Source: a virus
DNA: 33,094 bases
IMG/VR virus record: IMGVR_UViG_3300029338_000016
Direction: 5' to 3' (one strand)
Shown here: positions 2,235-33,094 of the stretch, piece after piece
How positions within the stretch are numbered: the stretch's first letter is position 1
How the letters are laid out: each line of letters opens with the position of its first letter
Program-made: the position numbers and the translations under genes
Notes under the pieces: generated by a model
Database searches by the model: none
The model's input: the letters and a program-made list of their open reading frames with translations, nothing else
What the model was told of the DNA's origin: nothing

Positions 2235-2696
2235 TTATGTTATCTCTTCCCACTTCGTCGAATTGACGCGCGGGGAATAGACGGAAGATTTGAAGTGCTG
2301 GGCGACGCATACCCACTTCTTCCCGTTGTGCGTTACCTTTGTTCCCTCCGTGATTACTTCGCCGTCCGGAAGGTCAGCCCATGCGCCAATCTGCTCTTCG
2401 GTCGGTGTGCGCGTCCATTTGTCCGGATTTGAAGCAGGGGATTTTCCACGGCTGTAATGCGTTGCCGTGTAGCTCACGCCGTCAAGCGTTACCACGTCGC
2501 CCGTGATATAGCTTTTCTTCTCGTTCCACTCTTCGCCTTGCTCCGGAAGGGAAACAAGGTTATTGCGGATACTCGAAATAATGCTTTCTTCGGTTTCGGC
2601 GCGGGCGGCTTCAACCTCCGCCATGATCGAAGCGCGCAAGGCTTCAAGCTCTGCCGCGCCGATCTGCTTTTCGCTCTTCTTGTGTGTTACGCTCAT
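2235..2696 (-). CDS. Fibre-associated protein with two CBM5/12-like carbohydrate-binding repeats
   Basis: YITGDVVTLDGVSYTATHY...PDKW and GTKVTHNGKKWVCVAQHF...STKW repeats. An ATGA overlap joins it to the upstream gene. Confidence 0.6.
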   Translation of the reverse strand: MSVTHKKSEKQIGAAELEALRASIMAEVEAARAETEESIISSIRNNLVSLPEQGEEWNEKKSYITGDVVTLDGVSYTATHYSRGKSPASNPDKWTRTPTEEQIGAWADLPDGEVITEGTKVTHNGKKWVCVAQHFKSSVYSPRVNSTKWEEIT

Positions 2697-4432
2697 TCAA
2701 AATTCCCCCCGATCCCCGATACCCAGCAAGCGGTCAGCGCGTCGCCGCGCTGGACGGTTACGCGGATATTCATTCCGTACTGTGCCGCCGTGTTGATCTT
2801 ATTTGTGAAAACGTGTGCAACGCCTTGAACAACCGCGTTCGTGCAATCCTCCCAAACGGGGGAAGCGTCAAACGGATTGTTCGTCGCTTCAACCTTGAAC
2901 GTGCCGCCCGCCGGAATATCTCGCGTTACCTTGATATTCGCGCGTGTCGGCTGGCTGTTGGCTTCCAGCGGCGCTGAAAGCGTGATAACGAAGCCCGCAA
3001 TCGACTTCGTGAACGTCAGCGTCCGGACGGCGCTATTTCCTGCGCTGTCGGTCGCCGTAATTGTGATCGTGTGCTTTGCGTTCGTAAGCGCCGTGAAGGT
3101 ATTTCCGGAAACGGAAAGCGTCTGCGTCGCGCCCAGCGTGATCGCGTTCTTCGTCGCGATTGTCTTTCCGTCGATCTTTTCAACAACGTTCACCGTGTCG
3201 CCGTCCGGATCGGTTACGCTGTATTGATAGGTGAAATCGGCGCGCTTGATCCCAAGATCGGCATTACTGCCGGAAATCACGGGCGGCTGGTTATGGATTA
3301 CGGCAATATCTCCGCTTGTGGTGTATGCGGAATAATTGCCGTAGCTGTCCTTTGCGCGGACGCGGTATTTTAACGTGTTCCACGCGGTCGATACCGCTTC
3401 CGTGAACGTCCTGCTTGCGGACGCTTGAACCTGTGTCCACGCGCCGCTGTTGTATGAGCGCTCGAAACAATAGGTCAGCGCGTCGCCGTCCGGATCGGTC
3501 GCCGCCGCGCAAGAAATGTTGATGTTCTGCCCGCTGTAACACGTTGCTGGCGCGGTAATGCTGGGCGGCGCGGAAGGCGCGGAATTGTAGATTACCGTAT
3601 AATTTCCGTCGCTGTTCGGGCTGTCAGATACCAAGATAGAAGATTTAAGATTACAAAGCGGGCGAACGCCATTAGTGCCGTCGTACGCGCTGTAGTAGTT
3701 CAAAGAGCCGTCCGAACCGACGCTGCGGACGTTGCGGGCGTTCGACGAACTAGGCGTCCGAAGCCACCAATACCAGCCCTTTGACGTGCTGAAACTGCTG
3801 TTCGTGTATCCGTCGGCGTTGTTCACGCATTGCGCCGTAGGATAAGCAACGCGGGAAGCGTCGTTGCTGAATAGCGCAAGAAGCGATCCTTCCGCGATAT
3901 TGTTTTCATTCGCAAGCCCCACTTCGGTGGTGGACGCAAGAAACATTTTCGCCTTGAAGGTTTCGTAACTGCCGCCGTCGGTCGAAGATTTAACAACGGT
4001 CAGCGTTGTTTCCATAAGCTCCGCAACAAACTTCGGATCAAGCATTGCAAGGAAGCCCGCCCACGAAGTGTACGGATTATACGTTACGTGCGTGTTCTTC
4101 GTCGTCGGCGCTTGATCCGCGCTGTGCTTTGCGCTGTACCATGCGCCCGCCGTCGCGTTGCTATTCAGCCATTGCAGAAGGTTTGAATAGATATGTCGGT
4201 TATTGCCGTAATTCTTGCGGTCGTTGTTGCTGTTGCTCGGTTCTTTCGCGTCGGAAGCCATGTTCTGAATGATCTTTTCCGTAATCAGCGTTACGGAATT
4301 CGACGGGTAGCCGCTGTGGTTCTTGTCGGCGATCTTGAAAACGATCTTTGATCCGAAGCGCGATTGATACGCCGAAAGAACCGGAACTTCAATCTTCGCG
4401 CCCACCGACAAACTGCCTAATGTTTTTGACAT
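2693..4432 (-). CDS. DGR target protein 1: fibre or receptor-binding-like protein. The N-terminal C-type-lectin-like domain carries VR1 (aa 226-259), followed by about 320 aa of Ig/FN3-like repeats.
   Basis: GWYWWLRTP...GVRPLCNLKS resembles the ligand-binding fold typical of DGR targets. VR1 matches the TR. The C-terminal region contains TDPDGD-type repeat domains. Confidence 0.85.
   Translation of the reverse strand: MSKTLGSLSVGAKIEVPVLSAYQSRFGSKIVFKIADKNHSGYPSNSVTLITEKIIQNMASDAKEPSNSNNDRKNYGNNRHIYSNLLQWLNSNATAGAWYSAKHSADQAPTTKNTHVTYNPYTSWAGFLAMLDPKFVAELMETTLTVVKSSTDGGSYETFKAKMFLASTTEVGLANENNIAEGSLLALFSNDASRVAYPTAQCVNNADGYTNSSFSTSKGWYWWLRTPSSSNARNVRSVGSDGSLNYYSAYDGTNGVRPLCNLKSSILVSDSPNSDGNYTVIYNSAPSAPPSITAPATCYSGQNINISCAAATDPDGDALTYCFERSYNSGAWTQVQASASRTFTEAVSTAWNTLKYRVRAKDSYGNYSAYTTSGDIAVIHNQPPVISGSNADLGIKRADFTYQYSVTDPDGDTVNVVEKIDGKTIATKNAITLGATQTLSVSGNTFTALTNAKHTITITATDSAGNSAVRTLTFTKSIAGFVITLSAPLEANSQPTRANIKVTRDIPAGGTFKVEATNNPFDASPVWEDCTNAVVQGVAHVFTNKINTAAQYGMNIRVTVQRGDALTACWVSGIGGNFE
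3656..3757 (-). repeat. DGR variable region VR1 (102 nt)
   Basis: Aligns without gaps to TR 5643-5744 with 11 differences. Ten are at TR adenines on the coding strand and one is C->T. Confidence 0.9.
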
Positions 4433-5472
4433 TGTGCCGCCTCCTTTGATTTCATTAAGCTGTTGTAATACTGATCCGTCCGCCGGATCAAGTGATAGCT
4501 GTTTCCCTTTTCGGCGTGTCCTCTCCAGCTTTGATAGGATTGTTCAACGGTCTTTGCGTCGATCCGTCCCGCCGCGTGAAGGGCGGCTAATTTCTTCAAC
4601 TTCCGCTTCATATTGTTCTTGCTCCTGCGGCGCACCTTGCGGATCACCGCGCCGCTTTCGGTCAAGTATGTATGAAAGCCCAAGAAATCAACGCCGTGTT
4701 TCAAGGGAAAGATATTCGTTTTCGCATTCAGCGAAAGCCCGCGCGCCTGTACGAACGCTTCAATCTGCTTCCGGCACTCCTGCAAATATGCTTTGTCGTG
4801 ATGGATCAAAAAGAAGTCGTCCATATAGCGCCCGTAATATTTGATACCCAGCTTTTCCTTTACGAAGTGATCCAGCCCGTCAAGGTAGAGAAGGGCGAAA
4901 AGTTGTGAAGTTTGATTGCCGATCGGTATTCCGACGTTGCCTTCGGTGCTGTCGATGATAAGATCAATCAGCCACAAAACGTCCGGATCGGTTATCTTCT
5001 CGCGGATTAAGGTTTTCAAAACGTCGTGCCGGATCGAATAGAAATACTTTGAAATATCGCCTTTCAGTATCCAGCCGTCAATTCCGTTCTTCCTGTAAAA
5101 CCTCCGCATGAACTCTTGAAGCCTGTCTAACCCGTAATGCGTACCTTTCCCCACCTGCGACGCGTAGTTATCGCGAATGAACGATCGTGTCAAAATCGGT
5201 TCAAGCACGTTATCGCAAAGCGAATGTTGAACAACCTTGTCTTTGTAGCTGTTCGACATAACCACGCGGCGCTTCGGCTCGTATACCTCGAACGTGTTAT
5301 ACGGGGACATGGTATAGCGCTTCGTTCTGATCTGCGCGCTTAATAGGTTCAGCGCTTCAAGAAGATTAACTTCAAACTTTGCCGCCGCTCCTTTCCACCT
5401 CTTGCCTTGCCGCGCCTTTCGGTAGGCATTGTATAGGCTTTCAAAACTGTGTATCTTTTCAAAGTCTGTCAT
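4417..5472 (-). CDS. DGR reverse transcriptase
   Basis: IGNQTSQ motif (the I/LGxxxSQ hallmark of DGR RTs) and YMDD. Start chosen at MTDFEKIH (ATG at 5472, gagga RBS). The longer ORF to 5583 covers the TR-RT spacer. Confidence 0.92.
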   Translation of the reverse strand: MTDFEKIHSFESLYNAYRKARQGKRWKGAAAKFEVNLLEALNLLSAQIRTKRYTMSPYNTFEVYEPKRRVVMSNSYKDKVVQHSLCDNVLEPILTRSFIRDNYASQVGKGTHYGLDRLQEFMRRFYRKNGIDGWILKGDISKYFYSIRHDVLKTLIREKITDPDVLWLIDLIIDSTEGNVGIPIGNQTSQLFALLYLDGLDHFVKEKLGIKYYGRYMDDFFLIHHDKAYLQECRKQIEAFVQARGLSLNAKTNIFPLKHGVDFLGFHTYLTESGAVIRKVRRRSKNNMKRKLKKLAALHAAGRIDAKTVEQSYQSWRGHAEKGNSYHLIRRTDQYYNSLMKSKEAAQCQKH

Positions 5473-5642: not shown

Positions 5643-5744
5643 AAGCGGGCGAACGCCATTGTTGCCGTTGTACGCGTTGTTGTTGTTCAAAGAGCCGTCC
5701 GAATTGACGTTGCGGACGTTGTTGGCGTTCGACGAATTAGGCGT
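5643..5744 (-). repeat. DGR template repeat (TR)
   Basis: On the coding strand it reads TPNSSNANNVRNVNSDGSLNNNNAYNGNNGVRPL, with 13 AAY codons and 29 adenines. It is invariant relative to two VR copies that differ almost only at these A positions. Confidence 0.9.
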
Positions 5745-5768: not shown

Positions 5769-6174
5769 TCAAGCTCTCGTTTTGTCCCGCTTCTTCCACG
5801 CGGTCGTCATGTACTTCACTTCAAGCGCAAGTTTTGACCAATATTCGCAACTGCTCATAGAAATAAAGCCCATTTCCTGCGAAAGCTCTATGAAAAAATA
5901 GAAGCTCCTTGCAATAGGTCAGCGCCTTTGCTTGTAGCTTCTGCCGTTGTCTGTATTCCTGCGCGTCCCGAAGGTCTAATTCGTTCGCTTCAAGGACGCA
6001 TTCGTAAATGTCCACCGCTTTATCCTGTATCCTGTTTACAAGCGTGAAGCGGTATTTCTTCGGGTAGCGCTCCGTCGAATTCGTGATCGTGAAGGTGTGC
6101 TTTACAAGGTCTTTCGCTTTCACAATCACGTTGAATTCCGTCGGTTCTTTCCGCTCCCGCTCCGGTCTTTGCAT
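5769..6174 (-). CDS. avd: Avd-like accessory variability determinant (four-helix-bundle family), interrupted by a +1 frame change at a T6 run (A6 on the plus strand, 5893-5898)
   Basis: Frame 0 (5821-6174) gives VIVKAKDLVKHTFTITNSTERYPKKYRFTLVNRI...CKELLFF and then an atypical tail. The +1 frame continues IELSQEMGFISMSSCEYWSKLALEVKYMTTAWKKRDKTRA to a stop at 5769, which resembles an Avd C-terminus. Confidence 0.7.
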
Positions 6175-22427: not shown

Positions 22428-23123
22428 TCATTTCGTAAAAAGCGTTGCTTGCGCTTTCCGTTCTTCCTGCTCCAAGAGATCAAAAAGCCGGATTTGTGCT
22501 TGTTCCTGTTCCAGCCGTTCATTTGCCGCGCGGCAATAATCTTCGTCGATCTCAAAGCCGACGAAATCAAGACCGCCTTGACGATAGCAAGCGATCAAGG
22601 AACTTCCGCTTCCGGCGTGTGTGTCCAATATCTTCATACCTTTTCGGGCGAAGAGGGAAAGAACCCACGAATACAGCTTCACGGGCTTTTGTGTCGGGTG
22701 AATTGTCCCGTCGTTCAGCAATTCAACGCGATTGCAGACAAAAACGCGCGTCGGCGTGTCGAAGCTGGTATACGCTAATTCGCAATCGCTCATCGTCAAG
22801 CCGTGTTGCCCCTTGTCCCATACAAGCCAGCCTTTATGTCCTTGTTCAAGATACGGAACGAAGTAATTTCCGCCCCATATCACTTGTGCTTTTGAAACGC
22901 GTTCCAATTCGCGGAAGTATTCGGGCGGGGGAATAGCCTTGTCCCAGCTTTTCCGGATATGCTCTTTCCGGTTATGCTTCGGATTGCCGCATACGCGCTT
23001 CTTCTGTCCGTCTATGCCGATACCGTAAGGCGGATCAACGATCGCAAGATCGAAGAAGCCGTCCGGAAACTCTTTCATTCCCTGCATACAGTCCATGTTA
23101 TACAGCTTGTTCAATTCAAGCAT
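22428..23123 (-). CDS. DNA methyltransferase (N6_N4 type, DPPY motif, probably N6-adenine)
   Basis: IVDPPYGIG, HPTQKPVKLYSWVL and DTHAGSGSS motifs. Confidence 0.9.
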   Translation of the reverse strand: MLELNKLYNMDCMQGMKEFPDGFFDLAIVDPPYGIGIDGQKKRVCGNPKHNRKEHIRKSWDKAIPPPEYFRELERVSKAQVIWGGNYFVPYLEQGHKGWLVWDKGQHGLTMSDCELAYTSFDTPTRVFVCNRVELLNDGTIHPTQKPVKLYSWVLSLFARKGMKILDTHAGSGSSLIACYRQGGLDFVGFEIDEDYCRAANERLEQEQAQIRLFDLLEQEERKAQATLFTK

Positions 23124-23477: not shown

Positions 23478-24218
23478 CTATTCACGTTTCTTCCGTCGTT
23501 TTGGCTTCTCCGGTTCGCGTACATATTTATAATATATGTAGCCCCACTTCGTCGCGCGGGCTTCCACCAGCTTGTAACCCTTCGGCGCGATCGGTGCTTT
23601 CTTTTCCGTATACGTCCGAAGTGCAAGCGTCGGCGCTTCCTTCTCCGGCTGGCGAAGATTGCGCGTCGCCTTCCAACGGTGTCCGCCCTGTTCCGGTGTC
23701 CAATGGTTGAAGAGGTAATCCGCAAGCCCCGTGTAATCCTGCCCGTAGTCAACGCCGTTATAATAATTGTGTTCGCGCAAGTGCCGGATATGGATTACTG
23801 ATCCGTCATTCCACTTGCCGCTGATCGTTTCTTCCGGTATGCCGTCTGAAATCATGTGAAAATGAATTCGGTTCGTAGACTTGCCGCGCCCCATGTAAAT
23901 AATGATCTTCGCGTCTGGACAAGCCCTTTGAAGCCGCCGGAAGTAATTGTCGCGTATTCTGCGCGCTTCGCTGAATGTATGAACTTCGCTGTCGTCGTCG
24001 AACGTCAGCGTACTATATAAGGAAAGCGGCGAAAAATTTTCATTAACCAGCCGCTGGTGTTTCCGTTTTGATATGCCGATCCGGTGTTGCGCGCGCTCTT
24101 CGTCGTCCTTGAAGCGCGGTCGCGGTTCAGCCTTCTTGATGTTTGTTCGATCGGATACGGTGTAAACCTCTTGTTCACATACAACGCCCGAAAAAATACG
24201 TCTTTTAACCCTCTGCAT
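23478..24218 (-). CDS. HUH-type rolling-circle replication initiator-like protein
   Basis: LYSTLTFDDD resembles motif 1 and RIHFHMISDG resembles the HUH motif 2. Tyr-rich C-terminal half and basic tail. ATG at 24218. Confidence 0.55.
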   Translation of the reverse strand: MQRVKRRIFSGVVCEQEVYTVSDRTNIKKAEPRPRFKDDEERAQHRIGISKRKHQRLVNENFSPLSLYSTLTFDDDSEVHTFSEARRIRDNYFRRLQRACPDAKIIIYMGRGKSTNRIHFHMISDGIPEETISGKWNDGSVIHIRHLREHNYYNGVDYGQDYTGLADYLFNHWTPEQGGHRWKATRNLRQPEKEAPTLALRTYTEKKAPIAPKGYKLVEARATKWGYIYYKYVREPEKPKRRKKRE

Positions 24219-24235
24219 AATCCCGCCGCCCTTCC

Positions 24236-24264
24236 TTGACAAAAGCGCCGTAAAATGCTATAAT
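24236..24264 (+). promoter_or_regulatory. Consensus sigma-70 promoter on the plus strand: TTGACA - 17 nt - TGcTATAAT
   Basis: -35 at 24236-24241, extended -10 TG at 24256-24257, -10 at 24259-24264. It lies in the 5' leader of the minus-strand rep gene and points away from it. Confidence 0.75.
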
Positions 24265-24269
24265 TTTTA

Positions 24270-24348
24270 ATATTGAATAGCTCCTTTTACAGCTATGTAA
24301 GAGGAAAAGAGAACGTCCGGAACGTCGCAACCGGACGTTCTCTTTTTT
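24270..24348 (+). ncRNA. Predicted ~80-nt small RNA whose 5' end is an anti-RBS seed (AAUAUUGAAUAGCUCCUUUU)
   Basis: Bounded by the consensus promoter and an intrinsic terminator. No ORF. The seed is the reverse complement of the initiation regions of four minus-strand genes. Confidence 0.55.
24309..24348. terminator. Bidirectional intrinsic terminator
   Basis: Perfect 12-bp stem gagaacgtccgg / ccggacgttctc with a 10-nt loop. TTTTTTGTTTT follows on the plus strand and TTTTCCTCTT on the minus strand, after the CDS ending at 24355. Confidence 0.8.
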
Positions 24349-24354
24349 GTTTTG

Positions 24355-24747
24355 TCAGCCGTTATTAAATCCTGCGCCCTGCTCGAAATCGGCGCACCGT
24401 TCTTCTTCGCAAGGCTTGAAGCGCATTCCGTCCGCGCACCCGACGCAAGGGAACGGGCGTACCCCGTCCGGAAGCGCGCCTTCGCGCAAGTGAACGCATT
24501 GTTCCAGCTTCGCGCATTGATCGCACCAGCACTTCCGGCAATCGCCGATCAGCGTTTTTTCAACCGGACGTTTCAAGCCCTCTTCGGCTTCCTGCGCGTC
24601 GTGTTCTTCCTGCATTTCCCGCGCCGCCTGTTCAATCGTGTAATCTTCAACGCCGTTCATAATACCCCGAAAGAATGGCGCGAACGCGTAGCCGATCCCA
24701 AGCCCCGCGCGCAAAAGCAATTCTTCGTCGATCTTAATATCTGCCAT
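24355..24747 (-). CDS. Cys-rich hypothetical protein
   Basis: 130-aa ORF with a GGAGGGG RBS and several CxxC-like pairs. No family was recognised. Confidence 0.6.
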   Translation of the reverse strand: MADIKIDEELLLRAGLGIGYAFAPFFRGIMNGVEDYTIEQAAREMQEEHDAQEAEEGLKRPVEKTLIGDCRKCWCDQCAKLEQCVHLREGALPDGVRPFPCVGCADGMRFKPCEEERCADFEQGAGFNNG

Positions 24748-24880
24748 TGTTCCCGCCGCCCCTCCGAAGCGCTCTGAAAAGCACGTTCAAAACGATGTAG
24801 ACGATCACAACGGAAGCGGCGACGCAAGCAACGCCGCAAAGCATATAAAAGGCGTTCACCATGAATTGATACATTGTCAT
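24734..24880 (-). CDS. Small (48 aa) single-TM protein
   Basis: MTMYQFMVNAFYMLCGVACVAASVVIVYIVLNVLFRALRRGGGNNGRY. An ATGA overlap joins it to the upstream gene, and its 3' end overlaps the next start. Confidence 0.5.
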   Translation of the reverse strand: MTMYQFMVNAFYMLCGVACVAASVVIVYIVLNVLFRALRRGGGNNGRY

Positions 24881-25515
24881 TCGTCAGCCCTCCCGAAAAC
24901 CTCTTCCGCGTCGATGTCCCACGCGGCGGCAATGTGCTTCATCATATCGACGGCTTCGGCGCGCTTCTTCTGTTCCTCTGCGTTCTCGCCGTTTAAGTAC
25001 GATACCAAGATTTCAGATTTGAGATTGCAAAGCGGGCGAACGCCATTGCCGCCGCCGAACGCAGGGCTGTAGTTCAAAGAGCCGTCCGAATAGACGTTAC
25101 GGACGAAAGAATTTATCGGGCTGTCCGGTGTAGCCGTCCACCACCAACGATCCGGAAGCGCCGGAGTGTTGCCGCGCAAAAGGCGGTATTCCTCGCAAGT
25201 GATAAGCCCGATCCGGACGCGATCGCCGCCGTAATTCTTCAAGCCGTCGTCGGCGGTCAAGTCGATGTTGAAATACTCGAACATTTCTTCCGGCGCGCCC
25301 GCCTTAATCAGACGGCGCAAGAATTCGCCGTTCAGATAGGCGCGAAGGGAAGAAGCGGCAAAGTCGTTCTTGTTCCCTTCATCGAAGGCGCGTTCCTCGA
25401 CGCAATCGGAAGTAATGCACTTCACCCAATCCGCGCCCGTCTGAATGACCGTCCAAGCGATCCCGCCCATTGTGAATTCCTGTTTCGGCTCGAAGCCGTG
25501 TTTGTTCTCTTTCAT
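24877..25515 (-). CDS. DGR target protein 2: small (212 aa) C-type-lectin-like protein carrying VR2 (aa 138-162); early-region, non-structural context
   Basis: RWWWTATP...VRNVYSDGSLNYSPAFGGGNGVRPLCNLKSEILVS is paralogous to the VR domain of target 1. Start at MKENKHGF (ATG at 25515) behind the shared RBS motif. The ORF-track extension to 25638 overlaps the MazG-like gene. Confidence 0.8.
   Translation of the reverse strand: MKENKHGFEPKQEFTMGGIAWTVIQTGADWVKCITSDCVEERAFDEGNKNDFAASSLRAYLNGEFLRRLIKAGAPEEMFEYFNIDLTADDGLKNYGGDRVRIGLITCEEYRLLRGNTPALPDRWWWTATPDSPINSFVRNVYSDGSLNYSPAFGGGNGVRPLCNLKSEILVSYLNGENAEEQKKRAEAVDMMKHIAAAWDIDAEEVFGRADE
25030..25104 (-). repeat. DGR variable region VR2 (75 nt, matches the 3' three-quarters of the TR)
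   Basis: Gap-free alignment to TR 5643-5717 with 12 differences, 10 at TR adenines and 2 C->T. Homology to the TR is lost upstream of GTCCGTAACGTC. Confidence 0.85.
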
Positions 25516-25534
25516 ATTGAATAGCTCCTTTCCT

Positions 25535-25867
25535 TTAACACTTCTTGCCGCCGTGCCGATACGGGCGGCTTTTGTTGTATTCGTGCTTCTGTGAGATCGC
25601 CGCGTCAATGTCGATCCCTGCGTATCCGCAATAATCAAGAACGCGAATAATCACGTCCGCAAGCTCCGTCGGGATACCTTCGGGCTTGCCGCTGTCGCTG
25701 AAATAGATTTCTGTTGCGCCGTGTCCGTTGCGGTATTCCTCCAGCGCTTCGGATACCTCCGAATGAATGAGCGCTAAAACCTCCGGAAATCCGCGTTCTT
25801 CGTCCCACCAGCCGTGGGCGACGGCGTTTTCGTGAATTTCCTTCGCAACCTCGTTAATACCTGTCAT
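25535..25867 (-). CDS. MazG-like nucleotide pyrophosphohydrolase
   Basis: EIHENAVAHGWWDE...LIHSEVSEALEE...ELADVIIRVLDY motifs. Confidence 0.8.
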   Translation of the reverse strand: MTGINEVAKEIHENAVAHGWWDEERGFPEVLALIHSEVSEALEEYRNGHGATEIYFSDSGKPEGIPTELADVIIRVLDYCGYAGIDIDAAISQKHEYNKSRPYRHGGKKC

Positions 25868-26198
25868 TGTCTTTTGCCCTCTCCTTCAATTCTTTTTCGG
25901 CGTTGTCGTCGGCTTCTGCCGTTCGGCAATCGCATTTTTCGCCGCTGTCAAGATGTGCGCCGCAAAGCGGGCATTCCTTGTATGGTGTCGCCATGTTGTT
26001 CTCCTTCTTGATAATCAGCCGCCGGAAGCCGTCGGCGCATAGCGTCAAGCCGTGTTCCTTCACGTACTCCCGCCGCCGTGCGGCTTCTGCCGCTTCCCAG
26101 CCGCAAGAAGCGCATTCCGAAGGCTTGCATTTCTGCGCCTTCTCCGGATCAATGCCCAGCAAGCACTTCAAGGGCGGCTTTTCCTGTCGGTTATTCAT
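25854..26198 (-). CDS. Cys-rich hypothetical protein
   Basis: 114-aa ORF in an operon context with overlapping stops and starts. CxxC pairs present. No family was recognised. Confidence 0.55.
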   Translation of the reverse strand: MNNRQEKPPLKCLLGIDPEKAQKCKPSECASCGWEAAEAARRREYVKEHGLTLCADGFRRLIIKKENNMATPYKECPLCGAHLDSGEKCDCRTAEADDNAEKELKERAKDNDRY

Positions 26199-26643
26199 TC
26201 TTCACCCGCTCCCCGTTATAGATAACTACCATTGACGGGAAGGGCGCGGGATCGGCGGCGTTTCCGTCGTCGTCCGTGAACCGTAGCCGCCCGCGCACGA
26301 AGCGGATTTCCGCTTTCCCGTAAATGTAATCGTGAAAATATGCCGTATCCGTCCGCGCTGGGATAAGTAAAACAATCGGATACCCCCCCCGCGCTTCCTC
26401 GAAAGCCTTTTGAACCCACTTGCCGATCTCGCGTCCGTAAGGCGGATTGCAGAATACCGCGCCGCCGCGATCCCAGCTTTGCGAAAGCCCGTCCGTTTCC
26501 GGCGTGTAATACAAAGAGCATTTCGCCGTCTTGTCGGTCGCCGCCGGATCAAGCACGAAGCCGAATTCGGCGTTCAGCTTGTCGAAGAAGTCTTGCGGCG
26601 TACACCAGCACATATTTTTAGAGGATAGAAGCGCCGCGTTCAT
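26191..26643 (-). CDS. Phage Dam-type N6-adenine DNA methyltransferase
   Basis: WCTPQDFFDKLNAEFGFVLDPAA...FCNPPYGREI...LLIPARTDTAYF...RGRLRF is typical of the phage Dam family. Confidence 0.88.
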   Translation of the reverse strand: MNAALLSSKNMCWCTPQDFFDKLNAEFGFVLDPAATDKTAKCSLYYTPETDGLSQSWDRGGAVFCNPPYGREIGKWVQKAFEEARGGYPIVLLIPARTDTAYFHDYIYGKAEIRFVRGRLRFTDDDGNAADPAPFPSMVVIYNGERVKNE

Positions 26644-27314: not shown

Positions 27315-27567
27315 CTTCGCCGCCCTCCGTTTCCTCTGCGTCCGCGTCGTGCCGTTCTACAATAGCCGGAAAGTCAATGCGCGGCGCGCGGATCGCCAGC
27401 GCGATTTGGCAACCGCAAACCGGACAATCAACCGCCGAAAAGCGCGTCGGTGCTTTCGTCAGCATATCCGCCATAGAACGCGGTTCTTCCGCCGTGTAGA
27501 TGTTTTCCCGCTCCGGTGTGAAGCGATAGCCGCAAACGCGGCATTCTGTCTTTTTCTTGCTGAACAT
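27304..27567 (-). CDS. Small zinc-ribbon protein (87 aa)
   Basis: CRVCGY...CPVCGC. Start at MFSKKK (ATG at 27567) behind the shared RBS motif. Confidence 0.6.
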   Translation of the reverse strand: MFSKKKTECRVCGYRFTPERENIYTAEEPRSMADMLTKAPTRFSAVDCPVCGCQIALAIRAPRIDFPAIVERHDADAEETEGGEDED

Positions 27568-27592
27568 AATTGAATAGCTCCTTTCGTGTGAT

Positions 27593-27909: not shown

Positions 27910-28926
27910 TTAATCTGTGTACGGGCTTTCAAGCGTCCAGCCGAAGCAATCCGTACTTTTCCATTTCATTGTGAAGTGATTGCGCCGCCCGTCGCCCGTG
28001 AAGAAGCAGTATTCCGCCGGAAGCACCCGCCCGACGTTTTCTTCGCCGTCCCGCTCCGCGCGGTATCGTGTCAGCACGTCCGCCGCAAGAAGGGCGAATT
28101 CCTCTTTCACGGGATATTCGGGATCGTAGCCGCTGAACTGATAGGGCGCTTCGATAACCTCCAGCACCGTGTCGGGGAAGCGCGGATCGTCAACGCGGTT
28201 CAGAACGCACCATACAACCGCCGCTTGCTCCGTCGTAGAAGGAACGATCCCCGCTTCGCCGTAGATCAGCTTTGCAAGGGCTTCAACCTCCGCCGTGTTC
28301 GGCACATATCCCGCCACCGTCCCGCTCGAAGGAAGAAGAACGGCGGTCGGCTGGTGTACCTCTTCAAGCGTTCCGGCGGTCGTATCCTTCGGCTTGTCCG
28401 CCGCACCGCTCCCGCTCCACGGCATAAGCGCCGCAAGAAGGGCGGCGACGGTCAGCAACGCAACCGTAAGGGCGACGCGACGGCGAAGCATTGCCCGCCG
28501 CCGTCGTTGTGCCACCTCCGCCGCCGGAAGGGAAAGCCACCATTCCGGATTGTTCCGGAACTGCTCATTCGCGCAAGCGTCGCAATTCTCCGCCGTGCAG
28601 GAAGAGCAATAACGCTTCTGAAAAGCCGCGTCCCACGGCGCTTCAATGCAAGGAAGGGAACGAAGGAAGCCCGCCAGCGTGGGCTTGTCCTTCGTGATAG
28701 CGTCAAATACCGAAGTGAACTGCCGAACGTTCAAAACTTCGTCGCCGATAATGCACCCGTTCGCGATCTGCTCTTTGATGAACTCAACGCACGGCATTTC
28801 CTCCGAAACGTGAAGATCATTGAACCGCGCTTCCGCTTCCTCGAAGCTGTCGAAGGTAACGGCGTTTGCGACGGACGCTTCGCCGTCGTATTCCCATAAA
28901 CGGATTTTGTATCGTGTTGTACTCAT
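27910..28926 (-). CDS. Membrane-anchored SleB-type cell-wall hydrolase: N-terminal unknown domain, one TM, C-terminal hydrolase
   Basis: LIYGEAGIVPSTTEQAAVVWCVLNRVDDPRFPDTVLEVIEAPYQFSGY resembles the SleB/Hydrolase_2 core. TM segment RRVALTVALLTVAALLAALMPW. Start at MSTTRYK (ATG at 28926) behind the shared RBS motif. Confidence 0.7.
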   Translation of the reverse strand: MSTTRYKIRLWEYDGEASVANAVTFDSFEEAEARFNDLHVSEEMPCVEFIKEQIANGCIIGDEVLNVRQFTSVFDAITKDKPTLAGFLRSLPCIEAPWDAAFQKRYCSSCTAENCDACANEQFRNNPEWWLSLPAAEVAQRRRRAMLRRRVALTVALLTVAALLAALMPWSGSGAADKPKDTTAGTLEEVHQPTAVLLPSSGTVAGYVPNTAEVEALAKLIYGEAGIVPSTTEQAAVVWCVLNRVDDPRFPDTVLEVIEAPYQFSGYDPEYPVKEEFALLAADVLTRYRAERDGEENVGRVLPAEYCFFTGDGRRNHFTMKWKSTDCFGWTLESPYTD

Positions 28927-28948
28927 TCCGAATAGCTCCTTTCCCGCG

Positions 28949-29179
28949 TTACTCTTCAATGCCGATATAAAGCACGTTTTCATCGGCGCGAAGCTCCGTG
29001 ATCTTGCAATATGCGTATTTGTTCATTTCGTCGTGTGCGAAGTGCTTATACAAGCCCCTGTAAATGTCCCGCTTCTGATAGCCGCATTCCCGAACGTAGA
29101 TATACACGTTCGTAAATCCGCTAATTACGTAGCCGATCGTTTGAAGTGCCACGTTGTTTGCGATCCTCTTCATCTTCAT
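28949..29179 (-). CDS. Small hypothetical protein (76 aa)
   Basis: Start at MKMKRIANN (ATG at 29179) behind the shared RBS motif. Confidence 0.55.
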   Translation of the reverse strand: MKMKRIANNVALQTIGYVISGFTNVYIYVRECGYQKRDIYRGLYKHFAHDEMNKYAYCKITELRADENVLYIGIEE

Positions 29180-29201
29180 ATTGAATAGCTCCTTTCGTAT
29201 T

Positions 29202-29599: not shown

Positions 29600-30637
29600 T
29601 CAAGCGGCTTCGGCGACGTATCTTTCAAAGAGCGATCCGGACGTTTCAAAGCCTAAAATCTCGCGCGGGTAATTGTTGATCCACGTTTCGACGCGCTGAA
29701 TATATGCGGCGGTTACTTTCCGGAAGTCTGTTCCTTTCGGCAAGAACCGCCGTATCATTTTGTTTATGTTCTCGTTCGTGCCGCGTTCGTATGCGCTGTA
29801 CGGGTGGCAATAGTAAACCTTCGTGCGCTTCCGGTCTTTGCCGTAGATGGATTTTTCAATTCCGGCGCAATCCATAAATTCCGATCCGTTGTCAAACGTA
29901 ATGCTTTTGAATATCTGTGAAAACTTCTTCCCGAAGCGGCGTTCTAATTTGTTCAGCGCCGCCACGACGCTGGCGGCGGTCTGATCCGGCATTTTGATAA
30001 TAATTTCGTTCCGCGTCAAGCGCTCCGAAAGAACGAACAAGGTTTCCTTCGTCCGCTTCTTCCCGCATACGCAATCGCCTTCCCAATGTCCGAAGGTCTG
30101 CCGATCGTTGATTTCCTGCGGGCGTTCTTCTATGCTTTCGCCTTGCGGCGCGCGGGCGGCTTTCTTCCGCTCCACCTTGTCATACTTCCGCTTTCGCTCT
30201 CCGTGTTCCGGCAAGCTCTCGCGGCTGATCCCGTAGAATATGCCTTTGTCGATGTAATTATAGATCGTCTTTTCGCTGATCTCCGTTTTGAAGGTCAGCC
30301 CCAGCCGCTTGATTTCTCCGACGACGGCGGCGGGGGAATAGCCTTCTTCGCCGATCTTCTTTTCGATGAAGGCGGATAATTCGTAATCGTTGCCGATCTT
30401 CAATTCGCCGCCTTTGGCTTTTAGGTTCTCTTCATAGCGCTGTTGCGCGATCTCCGGCGAATAGCGTTCTTCGGTCGTCAAGTCGGAATTCAAATGCGTG
30501 TAGCGTCCGCGCTTCAACTCCCTGTATATCGTTGTGTTGTGGACGTGCAGACGGTCGGCAATCGCGCACGGCTTTAAGCCCTCTTTCAATCCCTTTTCGA
30601 TCTTTAGGCGATCCGTCCATGTTAAGTGTTTGTGCAT
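29600..30637 (-). CDS. IS30-family DDE transposase
   Basis: N-terminal HTH, then GHWEGD...FDNGSEF...ERGTNENINKMIRRFLPKG (DDE triad context). ATG at 30637 after GGAGGA. Confidence 0.9.
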   Translation of the reverse strand: MHKHLTWTDRLKIEKGLKEGLKPCAIADRLHVHNTTIYRELKRGRYTHLNSDLTTEERYSPEIAQQRYEENLKAKGGELKIGNDYELSAFIEKKIGEEGYSPAAVVGEIKRLGLTFKTEISEKTIYNYIDKGIFYGISRESLPEHGERKRKYDKVERKKAARAPQGESIEERPQEINDRQTFGHWEGDCVCGKKRTKETLFVLSERLTRNEIIIKMPDQTAASVVAALNKLERRFGKKFSQIFKSITFDNGSEFMDCAGIEKSIYGKDRKRTKVYYCHPYSAYERGTNENINKMIRRFLPKGTDFRKVTAAYIQRVETWINNYPREILGFETSGSLFERYVAEAA

Positions 30638-30662
30638 TCTTTCTTCCTCCGGCTTCCGAATA

Positions 30663-30692
30663 TGACAAAAGGGCGGCATTTCTGCCGCCCTT
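30663..30692 (-). terminator. Intrinsic terminator after hicB
   Basis: 10-bp stem aagggcggca / tgccgccctt with a 4-nt loop, followed on the minus strand by TTGTCATATT. Confidence 0.65.
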
Positions 30693-30704: not shown

Positions 30705-31106
30705 TTATCTGCTTGTGATATGCAATTCGCTTTTAAGCGCCGCTTGCAGGACGGCGGAAAAATTCACGCCAGCCCGCTCCGCTTCAAAGTTAAGCCATGA
30801 AGGAATGGTGCAATTCTTCTTCACGACGCGCATATCGTTCTTTCTGCGGTACTCCGCGAAATCAACGTCAACCAGCGAAACGATCGCGCCGGACGGCGCT
30901 TCGGCTTGTGCGCTTGCAATGCTCGACGCTTCCGGCAATGCTTCGCCGTCGTCCTGCATATCAATTCCCATAAGCCCGATTGCGTCCCGCGCCATCTCGA
31001 TCGCGTCCGGAACGTCCTTGCCCTGCGTATTGATATTGAAATCGGGGACGAATACCACGACGAACTCTTTTCCCTGCGTCATAACGATGGGATATGCTTT
31101 TTTCAT
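30705..31106 (-). CDS. hicB: HicB-family antitoxin (N-terminal HicB fold plus C-terminal RHH-like DNA-binding tail)
   Basis: YPIVMTQGKEFVVVFVPDFNINTQGKDVPDAIEMARDAIGL. C-terminal IPSWLNFEAERAGVNFSAVLQAAL. Lies directly after hicA. Confidence 0.85.
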   Translation of the reverse strand: MKKAYPIVMTQGKEFVVVFVPDFNINTQGKDVPDAIEMARDAIGLMGIDMQDDGEALPEASSIASAQAEAPSGAIVSLVDVDFAEYRRKNDMRVVKKNCTIPSWLNFEAERAGVNFSAVLQAALKSELHITSR

Positions 31107-31158: not shown

Positions 31159-31332
31159 TTATTTCAGCCCGCGCCGCTTGATGATTGCTTTTGCTAACTC
31201 TTCGTCGGTTTCCCTGTGCCTTACGACGCTTTCCCTTTGACCGTCCTTCACGTATATGTCGTGGTTCGCGCCGTGCCGCTTGAACTTCCAGCCGTTTCGT
31301 TCTAAAAGCTCGATAAGGTCTTTTGTTTTCAT
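31159..31332 (-). CDS. hicA: HicA-family mRNA-interferase toxin (57 aa; below the ORF-track length cutoff)
   Basis: Translated by hand: MKTKDLIELLERNGWKFKRHGANHDIYVKDGQRESVVRHRETDEELAKAIIKRRGLK. aaggagg RBS. Confidence 0.8.
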   Translation of the reverse strand: MKTKDLIELLERNGWKFKRHGANHDIYVKDGQRESVVRHRETDEELAKAIIKRRGLK

Positions 31333-31355
31333 TTGCTGTCCTCCTTACATTTACT

Positions 31356-31384
31356 ATTATACGCCTTCAATGCGTATATGTCAA
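31356..31384 (-). promoter_or_regulatory. Consensus promoter TTGACA - 17 nt - TATAAT for hicAB, with a palindromic operator-like sequence in the spacer
   Basis: On the minus strand the -35 is at 31384-31379 and the -10 at 31361-31356. The spacer contains TATACGC-attgaag-GCGTATA. Confidence 0.7.
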
Positions 31385-31433
31385 TAGGTTTTTAGAAAAA
31401 ATATACGTATTTTATGCGCCTATAAAAGATAAG

Positions 31434-31458
31434 CGGCGGCGGGATCACCCCGCCGCCG
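31434..31458 (-). terminator. Intrinsic terminator after the XRE gene
   Basis: 10-bp GC stem cggcggcggg / cccgccgccg with a 5-nt loop, followed on the minus strand by TTATCTTTTAT. Confidence 0.6.
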
Positions 31459-31704
31459 TTATTCGTCTATACCTAAAAGCCAATTTACCGAAACGCCCAG
31501 CACTTCCGAAAATACTTTCAATTCAAAGTCAGATACAAAGCGCGTTCCGATCTCTATTCGGCTTATGCTGTCCCGCTCCATGTTGATCCCTTTGATCTGT
31601 ATTCGTGCGGCTAAATCCTCTTGCCGTAAGCGCTGGACGACGCGCGCTTCGCGCAATCGGTCGCCGCATATATTTTTCTTTCCATCGTAATCGTATATCT
31701 TCAT
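31459..31704 (-). CDS. XRE-family HTH transcriptional regulator (Cro/CI-like)
   Basis: GDRLREARVVQRLRQEDLAARIQIKGINMERDSISRIEIG is a canonical HTH_3 pattern. Confidence 0.85.
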   Translation of the reverse strand: MKIYDYDGKKNICGDRLREARVVQRLRQEDLAARIQIKGINMERDSISRIEIGTRFVSDFELKVFSEVLGVSVNWLLGIDE

Positions 31705-31768
31705 ATTCGCCGCGATTCCTCTTCATTCTGATTATTTGCAAACGGTGTGTAAATATTCCGCTTTATTC

Positions 31769-31797
31769 TTGATTTTATCGCACAAGCCACGTATAAT
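31769..31797 (+). promoter_or_regulatory. Promoter TTGATT - 17 nt - TATAAT for the plus-strand HIRAN gene
   Basis: Read in the divergent intergenic region between the XRE and HIRAN genes. Confidence 0.6.
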
Positions 31798-31859
31798 TGT
31801 GTTAAAGGTCAGAATGCCGAATTTTGCCTTGAAAAATCAAATTTGAAGGGGGAATTAGA

Positions 31860-32447
31860 ATGAAGAAATCTTCTATTGCTCTATATGTTGCCGCCGCGCT
31901 TTTCCTTGTATGCTCCTTTACGTTCCTTCCCGATAAAATCGCCGAATTCGTTTCCGGCGTTGTTATCGCCGCCGCGCTTGCTTTCCTCGGTTATCGTCAG
32001 CAGAAGAAGCCCGCCGCCGCAAAAAAAGAAGAAATGCCCGTTCCTGCGCCCGCTCCCGTGGTTAAGCCCGAACCCGCCGCCAGCGCAAAGAATGAGAATG
32101 CCGCGCCGCCGGAAAGCCCATACGAATTTATAACAACGAAGATTGCTGGCGTTACCTTTAAGGACGGTCGTAAAAGCCGCCAAACGATATTGCGCCGCTT
32201 GTACTGGAAGGACGAACCTTTCGACGAGAACGCCGCCGAAGTTACCCTTGATCGCGGCGAATACGAAGGGAAGCCCGCTTTCGCCGTCTTGCTGAATGAC
32301 GAAAAAGCCGGATATGTCCCCGCCGAATACTCGCAATTTCTCGAAGATAACTTCGATCGTTGCGACGGCGTGACGCACATTTCCGCATATCACGGCGCAA
32401 GCGATATTTACGGCGCTGAAATTACAATCCGTTTTCGGAAAGTTTGA
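31860..32447 (+). CDS. Membrane-anchored HIRAN-domain protein (two N-terminal TM segments, Pro/Ala-rich linker, C-terminal HIRAN-like domain)
   Basis: SIALYVAAALFLVCSF and VSGVVIAAALAFLGY hydrophobic segments. KIAGVTFKDGRKSRQTIL...AVLLNDEKAGYVPAEYSQFLEDNFD matches the bacterial HIRAN pattern. GGGGGA RBS. Confidence 0.7.
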   Translation: MKKSSIALYVAAALFLVCSFTFLPDKIAEFVSGVVIAAALAFLGYRQQKKPAAAKKEEMPVPAPAPVVKPEPAASAKNENAAPPESPYEFITTKIAGVTFKDGRKSRQTILRRLYWKDEPFDENAAEVTLDRGEYEGKPAFAVLLNDEKAGYVPAEYSQFLEDNFDRCDGVTHISAYHGASDIYGAEITIRFRKV

Positions 32448-32898: not shown

Positions 32899-33094
32899 TG
32901 TTTGTATCCTCGCTTTCTGTTATGTCGATTTTTTCTTTTTTCTTGATCCTGCCGATAATTACTTCGGCAATACGCTTCATCATCATTGCGCCACATTCAA
33001 TCACGACGGCGCGGAAATACCATTCGATCAGAACGGTTTGTTCCTGCCGCGTGATAAGGAATGAAACGTACTGTGCGATGATGAAAGCCGCCGT
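32888..33094 (-). CDS. 3' part of the same junction-spanning two-TM protein (its 5' end runs off the window end)
   Basis: Same reading frame through the 123-bp overlap. The TGA stop at 32888-32890 overlaps the start of the next gene by 11 nt. Confidence 0.6.
   Translation of the reverse strand, partial: TAAFIIAQYVSFLITRQEQTVLIEWYFRAVVIECGAMMMKRIAEVIIGRIKKKEKIDITESEDTNNDY
32972..33094. repeat. Second copy of the 123-bp terminal overlap
   Basis: Identical to 1-123. Confidence 0.95.

Follow-up and report, generated by a model that had tools for sequence, protein, structure and literature searches.

Phage DGRs are usually read as receptor-switching devices. A hypervariable target fixed in the replication module of phages that are very prevalent in the human gut is a misfit with this picture, and the question raised by the present locus is what such a target is for. 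The window analyzed here, a 33,094-nt stretch of viral DNA (IMG/VR record IMGVR_UViG_3300029338_000016), contains such a gene, named target 2 (24877 to 25515, minus strand), far from its template. The novelty that the earlier note implied for this second target does not stand, since a 2023 paper had already reported it for the near-identical phage nd12 (Baykov et al., Int J Mol Sci 24:17324, PMC10743442; GenBank OR777946). nd12-like phages have the same template repeat (TR; 102 nt, identical) and a genome 94.6% identical to the window over 86% of the query, and the orthologous protein, nd12_tgt2, is 94.8% identical to that of target 2. With its existence published, the function of target 2 is now the point of interest. 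The analysis described below adds a corrected ORF, a recurrent position in the early module, an IMH-like flank common to the two variable regions (VR1 and VR2), a link to a candidate small RNA (sRNA), and cultured hosts.

A second variable region remote from its template

A repeat search of the window showed a three-copy family consisting of VR1 (3656 to 3757), the TR (5643 to 5744, minus strand), and VR2 (25030 to 25131). The TR is adenine-rich with AAC/AAT codons, and it is adjoined in the same genome by a DGR-type reverse transcriptase (RT) and Avd. The RT (4417 to 5472, minus strand; 351 amino acids counted from M38 of the ORF) matches RVT_1 (E, 6e-15) and phrog_1423 (E, 1.6e-134), and IGNQTSQ, a DGR-type I/LGxxxSQ motif, is visible in its translation. 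The Avd accessory protein (5821 to 6174, minus strand) matches phrog_3206, “Avd protein of DGR” (E, 1.4e-15). VR1 lies within the target 1 gene (2693 to 4432, minus strand; DUF6273 E, 7e-34; phrog_10993 E, 3.5e-187) and differs from the TR at 12 of 102 nt, 11 of them TR adenines. Target 1 had been labeled a fiber; it is instead a tentaclin/Hoc-like protein, in which Ig-like domains (Big_13 match) come after a DUF6273 domain at the N terminus (PMC10743442). The distances from the TR to VR2 given earlier, about 19.3 kb on the map and 13.6 kb around the circle, agree with the values obtained here. The former is 19,387 bp, and since the window ends in a 123-nt terminal repeat with a spacing of 32,971, the latter is 13,584 bp.

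The earlier note had also described a gapless alignment of VR2 to the TR with 12 differences, 10 at adenines, and seven resulting amino acid changes, all of which were reproduced. On the coding (minus) strand, window positions 25104 to 25030 pair with TR positions 5717 to 5643, and the TR adenines that differ are 5705, 5684, 5680, 5678, 5677, 5671, 5669, 5668, 5663, and 5662. According to the translations, the residue changes are N>Y, N>Y, N>S, N>P, Y>F, N>G, and N>G. The two remaining mismatches, both C-to-T (TR 5712 and 5676), change no amino acid and are peculiar to this window, T being found at those columns in 1 of 41 orthologues. The description of VR2 as the 3′ 75 nt of the TR was right in that its span is shorter than the 102-nt TR, but the span itself needed correction. 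TR-A columns farther 5′ (window positions 25110, 25109, and 25106) also vary, at low frequency, and VR2 therefore extends to about 25111 (25030 to 25111, minus strand), or ∼82 nt rather than 75. Because homology to the TR is confined to its 3′ 76 to 82 nt, the tract for VR2 is shorter and takes in 20 to 24 of the TR's 28 adenines.

Whether VR2 is a live target was judged by comparison between genomes, using assemblies rather than within-sample reads. Several trends were apparent. First, 41 near-identical orthologues found in other metagenomes were hypervariable at all 20 TR-A columns but at only 1 of the 55 remaining columns (Fisher P = 2.6e-17), and all four bases occurred at the variable TR-A columns. 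Second, VR2 was distinct in every one of the 41, and identity was 98.9% outside the variable region versus 83% inside. Third, the 102-nt TR was 100% identical in nd12 and two other contigs (L003 and L004), and in these three genomes both variable regions differed at A positions only while the TR was invariant. Fourth, VR2 was still variable in orthologues of 67 to 78% identity, where it was flanked by conserved anchors, and the A-restricted pattern was also present in bacterial isolates. Cultured lysogens were identified as Hominicoprocola fusiformis CLA-AA-H269, Oscillibacter valericigenes An907, and the Oscillospiraceae isolate CM18GR_63. Finally, gut proteins with 96% identity are widespread; grouped at 90% identity, they form clusters of as many as 10,131 and 23,439 distinct members.

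As far as genome comparison can tell, VR2 is thus very probably a real and currently active second target of a single DGR, diversified in trans from one TR by one RT, as the earlier note had proposed. That VR2 is instead a fossil or paralogous copy of VR1, resembling the TR through common DUF6273 ancestry without present homing, is scarcely credible: the flanks of VR1 and VR2 are alike beyond the TR, as expected of two related C termini, and published read mapping of the cultured relatives Lelie/Toutatis detected no activity in culture, with no variation peak at the variable regions in the Lelie reads (PMC11792537), but each near-identical genome has its own VR2 within an otherwise conserved gene, the pattern is kept in diverged orthologues and isolates, and this explanation was rejected as one that survives only with an A-specific artifact across dozens of independent assemblies.

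Flanks of the variable regions and a proposed route of homing

The GC-rich 3′ end of VR2, GGCGTTCGCCCGCTT (25030 to 25044), is common to the TR, VR1, and VR2. It was identical in all aligned orthologues, down to 67% identity, apart from two (L081 and L083) with a single change (CCCGATT). On the 3′ side, the following ∼30 nt, TGCAATCTCAAATCTGAAATCTTGGTATCG (25000 to 25029, minus strand), are nearly identical in the VR1 flank (3626 to 3655) and are missing from the TR. The same arrangement was found in nd12-like phages, nd4, and Toutatis, in which the VR1 and VR2 flanks are near-identical over ∼30 nt within a genome but unlike between lineages. A good example is Toutatis, where a compensated frameshift distinguishes the VR1 flank from the VR2 flank and alters the amino acids, which means that constraint on the flank acts at the DNA level. 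Constraint at the protein level contributes as well, since the last beta-strand of the DUF6273 domain is encoded within the flank. The shared ∼30 nt may be an IMH-type element that marks the recipient sequence. No stable hairpin or cruciform was found downstream of VR1 or VR2, and DNA folds of 86 nt across the VR ends were weaker than those of shuffled controls (z = +1.3 and +1.6); therefore, a target-recognition structure of the type known from Bordetella phage BPP-1 is not evident. Such downstream hairpins or cruciforms are not universal among DGRs.

In the proposed route, the Avd-TR-RT cassette (6174 to 4417, minus strand), which is situated in the late region beside target 1, would produce an adenine-mutagenized cDNA of the 102-nt TR. 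This cDNA would then replace the homologous stretch in two genes in trans, at VR1 in the adjacent tentaclin and at VR2, 13.6 or 19.4 kb away. The recipients may be recognized by the 15 GC-rich nucleotides common with the TR followed by the ∼30 nt common to VR1 and VR2 only, and VR2 would receive the shorter tract.

A small, probably lectin-like product and its possible roles

Translation confirmed a 212-amino-acid ORF for target 2. Its translation-initiation motif, GAAAGGAGCTATTCAATATG (25513 to 25532, minus strand), consists of an SD and an ATG, and longer gene calls conserve it as a “KELFNM” read-through. Conservation of the SD-ATG within the longer calls marks the true start. Gene calls of 289 to 297 amino acids were therefore rejected as the real protein; the additional residues come from an upstream ORF, either DUF3310 or a MazG with a frameshift, whose reading frame runs on across the conserved SD-ATG.

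The product contains a stand-alone DUF6273 domain, probably lectin-like (about residues 13 to 166), and a long C-terminal helix (residues 167 to 198). It matches Pfam DUF6273 (PF19789) with 39.2 bits against a cutoff of 23.5, a match that spans profile positions 129 to 172 only, and phrog_9958 over its full length (E, 5e-44). An AF2 model built from a diverse 84-sequence alignment showed a single globular domain plus the C-terminal helix (pLDDT, 93.3); a model from a shallow alignment, whose 51 sequences fell into three tight clusters, was set aside (pLDDT, 45.6). VR2 encodes residues 136 to 162, which in the AF2 secondary structure make up a beta-hairpin (137 to 141/147 to 151) and the loop after it. 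Foldseek with this model retrieved PDB 9qa6 and phage DUF6273 proteins, whereas a PDB sequence search with the single protein gave no match. Domain searches and the AF2 model showed no Ig, beta-prism, or other attachment module, and the translation showed no signal peptide or lipobox at the N terminus. Lacking an Ig-like domain, target 2 does not fit the definition of a tentaclin, whereas target 1 does (DUF6273 plus Big_13, phrog_10993). Pfam, PHROG, AF2, and Foldseek thus agree with the earlier description of a small lectin-like product without recognizable virion-attachment domains. As modeled, target 2 is a 212-amino-acid soluble protein with one DUF6273 domain bearing a predicted hypervariable beta-hairpin, plus a C-terminal helix.

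The gene had been placed among methyltransferase, MazG, and replication genes, and these neighbors were identified as MazG (25535 to 25867), a Dam methyltransferase (26191 to 26643), a replication initiator (23478 to 24242), and a second methyltransferase (22428 to 23123). The order MazG-tgt2-p130-RepInit-MTase-NDT-TerL was kept in ∼80 loci and was also found in bacterial isolates. The small target of nd4 adjoins an RNase_T exonuclease, SSB, and DnaC, and gp24 of Toutatis lies between methyltransferases and a replication initiator, 37 kb from its own TR. More distant homologues adjoin YqaJ-RecT, or RNase_T and a methyltransferase; another is preceded by an HNH gene and a replication initiator (REP_ORF2-G2P) and lies immediately upstream of the small terminase. 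A position of small targets in early, replication, or recombination modules therefore recurs across several unrelated phage lineages. p130 accompanies target 2 among nd12-like phages, but it was rejected as a conserved partner of small targets, since it resembles none of the genes after Toutatis gp24 and belongs to no Pfam or PHROG family. PADLOC defense models matched neither target 2 nor its neighbors.

A further link to the early genes is the initiation motif, which is common to target 2, the replication initiator, and other early genes. GAAAGGAGCTATTCAATATG occurs in five copies on the minus strand compared to 0 expected by chance. The 5′ end of a candidate antisense sRNA (24271 to 24350, plus strand) is complementary to this motif in target 2 and four other early genes; a motif search thereby bore out the complementarity that had been suggested from the sequence. 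The candidate has a promoter (24236 to 24264) with 12/12 consensus matches and an extended −10, a terminator, and a stable fold (−37 kcal/mol, z = −8.2), and it is conserved in relatives with compensatory stem changes. Rfam at gathering thresholds assigned no family anywhere in the window. The candidate sRNA is a possible regulator and does not belong to the DGR.

What, then, might target 2 do? The reading that we prefer, tentatively, is that it may be an early-made, nonvirion, adaptable binder whose ligand changes between hosts. This is because the gene is a fixed member of a replication/nucleotide-metabolism module and has an initiation motif common with early genes. All genes lie on one strand, however, and gene position therefore does not prove timing. 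In small phages, moreover, genes for virion accessories can lie outside the structural block. The earlier suggestion of a nonstructural, intracellular or early protein with a different use is thus favored by its context, the recurrent early-module synteny, but it is opposed by the nd12 paper, which proposes an Mtd-like receptor-binding role and, in its available text, does not discuss the replication-module position (PMC10743442).

According to that proposal, which we consider possible but distinctly doubtful, target 2 would be a virion receptor-binding protein attached to the tail via terminal helices and encoded away from the structural genes (PMC10743442). The lectin-like domain with a surface hypervariable hairpin shaped as in target 1 (PMC10743442; AF2) is consistent with this, as is the use of one TR, and hence one mutational repertoire, for both targets. 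Substitutions favor aromatic residues and Ser, as at receptor-binding sites, and some Foldseek BFVD matches are named “Receptor Binding Protein” or “tail-collar fiber,” these being multidomain proteins with DUF6273 alone in common. However, target 2 has no beta-prism, beta-sandwich, or other trimerization or attachment domain, and its product is just 212 amino acids once the spurious upstream read-through is removed. Mtd was retrieved neither by Foldseek nor by the PDB sequence search. The proposal also loses one support, because the “DUF3310 N-terminal helix” of nd12_tgt2, a possible attachment motif, belongs to a separate upstream ORF, in place of which the window has MazG with a stop codon. 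Finally, instead of an N-terminal beta-prism/beta-sandwich and a gene in the tail module, there is a single domain plus a helix, encoded between MazG and the replication initiator, and many lineages keep the gene at a fixed place in their replication module.

It is rather improbable that target 2 is a soluble factor, freed at lysis or made by the lysogen, that binds glycans or proteins belonging to the human host or to other bacteria. There is a precedent in the Mushuvirus Hoc-like DGR target, which was found in the bacterial secretome and for which a released-factor role was proposed (bioRxiv 10.64898/2026.05.08.723808). nd12-like phages are prophages of cultured Oscillospiraceae and extremely prevalent in human gut data, and a DUF6273 domain stands at the head of a Thomasclavelia ramosa IgA peptidase that is secreted and anchored to the cell wall (PMC12402451). 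Against this, target 2 carries no N-terminal signal peptide or lipobox, and its gene is in the lytic early operon, away from the lysogeny genes.

The preferred reading of an early, nonvirion binder could be taken further. Small stand-alone DUF6273 proteins might be widespread early cytoplasmic DGR-diversified binders that track a variable intracellular host factor or defense component and are coregulated with replication genes by the sRNA; this broader idea is unlikely as a whole. If true, small DUF6273 targets would be phage-side adaptive binders of temperate Oscillospiraceae phages, with an antisense sRNA pairing with the shared initiation motif. The cultured lysogens are systems in which timing, localization, virion content, and homing are directly measurable.

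Comparison with known systems

The closest known system is that of nd12. As in the window, VR2 of nd12_tgt2 spans less than VR1 does, contains 20 mutable adenines, and makes up a beta-hairpin of a DUF6273/C-lec domain. The two differ in gene model: that of nd12 has ∼294 to 297 amino acids, read through from the upstream DUF3310 ORF, whereas in the window the upstream MazG stops and 212 amino acids follow from the conserved SD and ATG.

Pairs of large and small DUF6273 targets were also described in the Faecalibacterium phages Lelie/Toutatis and in CP11 (PMC11792537, Microbiol Spectr 2024). Like the window, these have one DGR, with Avd-TR-RT beside a large Hoc-like DUF6273 target, and a small stand-alone DUF6273 target, which is 31 to 33% identical to the window protein. 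Toutatis is a different, larger phage (54 kb), but its gp24 (215 amino acids) is also a remote hypervariable target. This was confirmed here against its own TR, from which the gp24 variable region differs by 13 A mismatches and 1 other, and it is hypervariable in the population.

The BPP-1 DGR (Mtd, TR, Brt, Avd, and IMH) resembles that of the window in its adenine-specific mutagenic retrohoming from an invariant TR, in a VR located in the 3′ part of a domain that in the window is probably lectin-like too, and in a GC-rich 3′ end followed by VR-specific sequence. However, BPP-1 has a cruciform downstream of the VR, whereas none was found in the window, and it has a single adjacent target, a tail-fiber tip protein containing a trimeric beta-prism and beta-sandwich.

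Among solved structures, target 2 has a significant match only to ThomasA, the T. ramosa IgA peptidase (PDB 9qa6, PMC12402451), with a sequence profile E of 1.5e-7 and a Foldseek E of 4.4e-7 (TMq, 0.60). Unlike target 2, its DUF6273 is the N-terminal domain of a 1,200-amino-acid secreted bacterial protease and is not a DGR target.

Finally, Quimbyvirus (Benler et al. 2021, Microbiome 9:78, PMC8008677) differs in being a Bacteroides phage with an unrelated target family, an opposite-strand target, and a frameshifted RT. Nevertheless, like the window, it pairs a target in the structural module with a second one far off; in Quimbyvirus the latter, a C-type lectin, lies among methyltransferases and a nuclease and was read by its authors as nonstructural.

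Variation of the second variable repeat among related phages

The window, a phage genome of ~33 kb, begins and ends with the same 123 nt (terminal repeat, 1-123 = 32972-33094; unit, 32,971 bp), and the - strand carries nearly all of its genes. Its diversity-generating retroelement (DGR) is complete, with a reverse transcriptase (RT; 4417-5472; RVT_1 and phrog_1423 matches, IGNQTSQ motif), Avd (5821-6174; phrog_3206), the template repeat (TR) between them, and target 1 (2693-4432), a tentaclin gene whose product combines an N-terminal DUF6273 domain with Ig-like domains (phrog_10993, "Hoc-like"). The repeat finder returned a single three-copy family, at 3656-3757 (VR1), 5643-5744 (TR), and 25030-25131. 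On the coding strand, 25104..25030 aligned without gaps to TR 5717..5643, and the 12 mismatches comprised 10 TR adenines and two C>T changes, both silent and each found solely in the window among 41 orthologues. The alignment, the seven amino acid changes, and the 212-aa translation of 24877-25515 described in the earlier note were all reproduced, as were the distances from the TR to target 2 (19,387 bp along the map, 13,584 bp in the other direction around the circle). Its VR2 span stood as a 75-nt core but not as a tract with a sharp 5′ edge, since low-frequency variation at TR-A columns 25110, 25109, and 25106 extends the tract to ~25111.

Comparison between genomes stood in for read pile-ups. 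Scanning IMG/VR located orthologues of the 212-aa protein at 80 loci, and VR2 statistics were computed for 41 sequences, the window gene and 40 orthologues with at least 93% nucleotide identity to it. First, pairwise identity was 98.9% outside VR2 compared to 83% inside. Second, all 20 TR-adenine columns were hypervariable (3-4 alleles, entropy 1.2-2.1 bits) compared to 1 of 55 non-adenine columns (Fisher p = 2.6e-17), and no two of the 41 VR2 sequences were the same. Such adenine-restricted hypervariability among near-identical genes rules out a fossil VR2 and supports the DGR target proposed earlier. Third, the 102-nt TR was 100% identical in phage nd12 and two more contigs, where VR1 and VR2 depart from it at A only. 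Fourth, orthologues at 67-78% identity share the same design, with variable codons flanked by the almost invariant anchors CGTCCGC (a 3-nt deletion in two loci) and GGCGTTCGCCCGCTT (a single change in two). Finally, two 90%-identity protein clusters of target 2 hold 10,131 and 23,439 distinct members. Judged from these sequence comparisons, VR2 is an active DGR target.

Other irregularities were seen at VR2. A T>G change at 25045 (gene position 471; TR T5658) recurs in 10 of the 41 orthologues, always alongside a G in the TR-A column just before it (AAT > xGG), and is not explained by adenine mutagenesis. One orthologue (L041, 10411-10564) carries a tandem partial duplication adding 26 aa (...GVRPLCNL followed by NVYSDGSL...GVRPLCNLKS), with separate adenine substitutions in each copy; this is either an aberrant homing/recombination product or an assembly artefact. 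In three contigs (L016, L027, and L042) a distance of 2.5-6 kb, instead of ~19 kb, separates target 2 from the tentaclin or RT downstream of it, probably through assembly jumps between VR2, VR1, and TR repeats.

The GC-rich GGCGTTCGCCCGCTT is the 3′ end common to TR, VR1, and VR2. Over the next ~30 nt VR1 and VR2 are nearly identical, whereas the TR is unrelated. The VR1 and VR2 flanks of phages nd4 and Toutatis are likewise alike within each genome, their sequence being lineage specific. In Toutatis a compensated 1-nt shift leaves similar DNA encoding different residues, which points to a DNA-level constraint on the flank. The ~30-nt flank may be an IMH-type mark of the DGR recipient; no stable hairpin was found downstream of either VR.

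The target-2 gene, its product, and its setting

Many database copies of target 2, the nd12 annotation among them, run to 289-297 aa, and public models of the orthologue span 289-329 aa (P0002, P0010, P0001; nd12 31285-32178). The 289-297-aa model was rejected: its extra N terminus is an upstream ORF (DUF3310 or frameshifted MazG) running through the conserved SD-ATG region, and the read-through stretch AAGGAGCTATTCAATATG, translated KELFNM, is conserved. The "DUF3310 N-terminal helix" of nd12_tgt2, the nd12 target-2 protein, is probably a separate protein. In the window the MazG stop codon precedes the target-2 ATG by 19 nt, which gives a product of 212 aa.

Pfam DUF6273 matched the C-terminal part of this protein above threshold, and phrog_9958 (function unknown) spans its full length. 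An exhaustive representative search yielded 1,015 cluster representatives with E <= 1e-3, and lengths of 180-300 aa prevailed among the 150 listed; 84 diverse relatives from this search formed the AF2 input alignment. The structure prediction, suggested in the earlier note, yielded a single globular alpha/beta domain with a long C-terminal helix at aa 167-198 (pLDDT 93.3, pTM 0.82), and VR2 (aa 136-162) forms a hairpin (137-141/147-151) plus loop. The sole significant Foldseek match in the PDB, also retrieved by sequence profile, was 9qa6 (E 4.4e-7, TMq 0.60), the similarly folded N-terminal DUF6273 domain of Thomasclavelia ramosa IgA peptidase (PMC12402451); canonical C-type lectins gave only nonsignificant E-values. 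Of 21 significant matches in BFVD, the informatively named ones were mostly gut-phage DUF6273 proteins.

In order of transcription, the genes are holin, HicB-like gene, IS30-type transposase, a 357-aa cell-wall-hydrolase-like protein, a 224-aa protein, Dam methyltransferase, a 114-aa protein, MazG, target 2, p130, replication initiator (RepInit), second methyltransferase, nucleoside deoxyribosyltransferase, resolvase-like gene, regulator, HNH, TerS, TerL, head and tail genes, Avd-TR-RT, tentaclin, and endolysin. This agrees with the methyltransferase, MazG, and replication setting noted earlier, and the MazG-target 2-p130-RepInit-methyltransferase block is kept in nearly all 80 loci. The 130-aa p130 (24355-24747, - strand), a constant companion of target 2 in nd12-like phages, matched no family in Pfam, PHROG, or PADLOC. 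Distant phages with RepInit 58-70% identical have neither gene; the pair thus behaves as a unit and may be a two-gene cassette. The IS30-type DDE transposase (29600-30679, - strand; phrog_4646, E 7e-136), which adjoins a HicB-like antitoxin gene (30705-31106, - strand) and holds the same place in relatives, may be the phage integrase.

The early-module position of small DUF6273 genes recurs across unrelated phages. The nd4 small target, ~9 kb beyond the DGR, adjoins an RNase_T exonuclease and precedes SSB and DnaC. Toutatis gp24, 37 kb from its TR, has methyltransferases on one side and a replication initiator on the other; its mismatches to that TR fall at A in 13 cases and elsewhere in 1, and population sequences show it to be hypervariable. 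Distant homologues (35-54% identical) lie by YqaJ-RecT, by RNase_T and a methyltransferase, or after REP_ORF2-G2P and HNH. Toutatis gp80 (29049-29201, 50 aa, between Avd and RT), a CDS labeled "DUF6273 domain-containing protein" in RefSeq, is actually the template repeat.

A shared initiation motif and a candidate antisense RNA

A 20-nt SD-plus-start motif, GAAAGGAGCTATTCAATATG, occurs five times in the early region, all on the - strand (24269-24288, 25513-25532, 27566-27585, 28924-28943, and 29177-29196), where chance predicts 0 copies. One copy initiates target 2 and another lies in the RepInit leader. Facing the latter on the + strand, between p130 and RepInit, are a candidate antisense sRNA of ~80 nt and its promoter (24236-24350), a perfect sigma-70-type TTGACA-17-TG-TATAAT (12/12 consensus, extended -10). 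The predicted RNA has two hairpins and a strong terminator with a 15-bp stem (-37 kcal/mol, z = -8.2); relatives retain it and show compensatory changes in its stems. It matched no Rfam family. This candidate corresponds to the sRNA predicted earlier. Its 5′ end is complementary to the 20-nt motif and, over 18 contiguous nt, to the target-2 initiation region. The upstream neighbor of target 2 is MazG (56% or 98% identical) in some relatives and DUF3310 in others, so the motif copies may also be recombination junctions.

Possible roles and comparison with known systems

An early, intracellular function for target 2 is plausible, though slightly short of an even chance. The early-module position is in keeping with it, and neither an Ig nor an Mtd-like attachment domain was found in the 212 aa, as the earlier claim of no virion-type domains had it. 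A virion receptor-binding protein is a less probable reading; the nd12 paper showed a C-lec hairpin in its AF2 model and proposed an Mtd-like role for nd12_tgt2 (PMC10743442). A released factor is improbable, no signal peptide having been found in target 2.

The second DGR target is already known. Phage nd12 (OR777946), which has the same TR and, across 86% of the query, shares 94.6% identity with the window, was described with two targets, the shorter VR2 having 20 mutable adenines and A>N variation across 13 related genomes (Baykov et al. 2023, PMC10743442). Lelie and CP11 carry "large and small" DUF6273 target pairs (PMC11792537), and Quimbyvirus has a second, presumably non-structural target among methyltransferases (Benler et al. 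2021, PMC8008677). Given the nd12 and Quimbyvirus papers, neither the observation nor the notion that a phage DGR target can be non-structural is new to the literature. No nd12-like prophages were reported in 2023 (PMC10743442); we found such prophages, fully syntenic and with target 2 92-94% identical, in three cultured Oscillospiraceae isolates, Hominicoprocola fusiformis CLA-AA-H269, Oscillibacter valericigenes An907, and Oscillospiraceae bacterium CM18GR_63 (within a 332-kb contig), and a 74% relative in Neglectibacter caecimuris. Added here are a correction of the ORF, the recurrence of the early-module position, the IMH-like flank common to both VRs, the link to an sRNA, population evidence on a much larger scale, and the cultured Oscillospiraceae lysogens.
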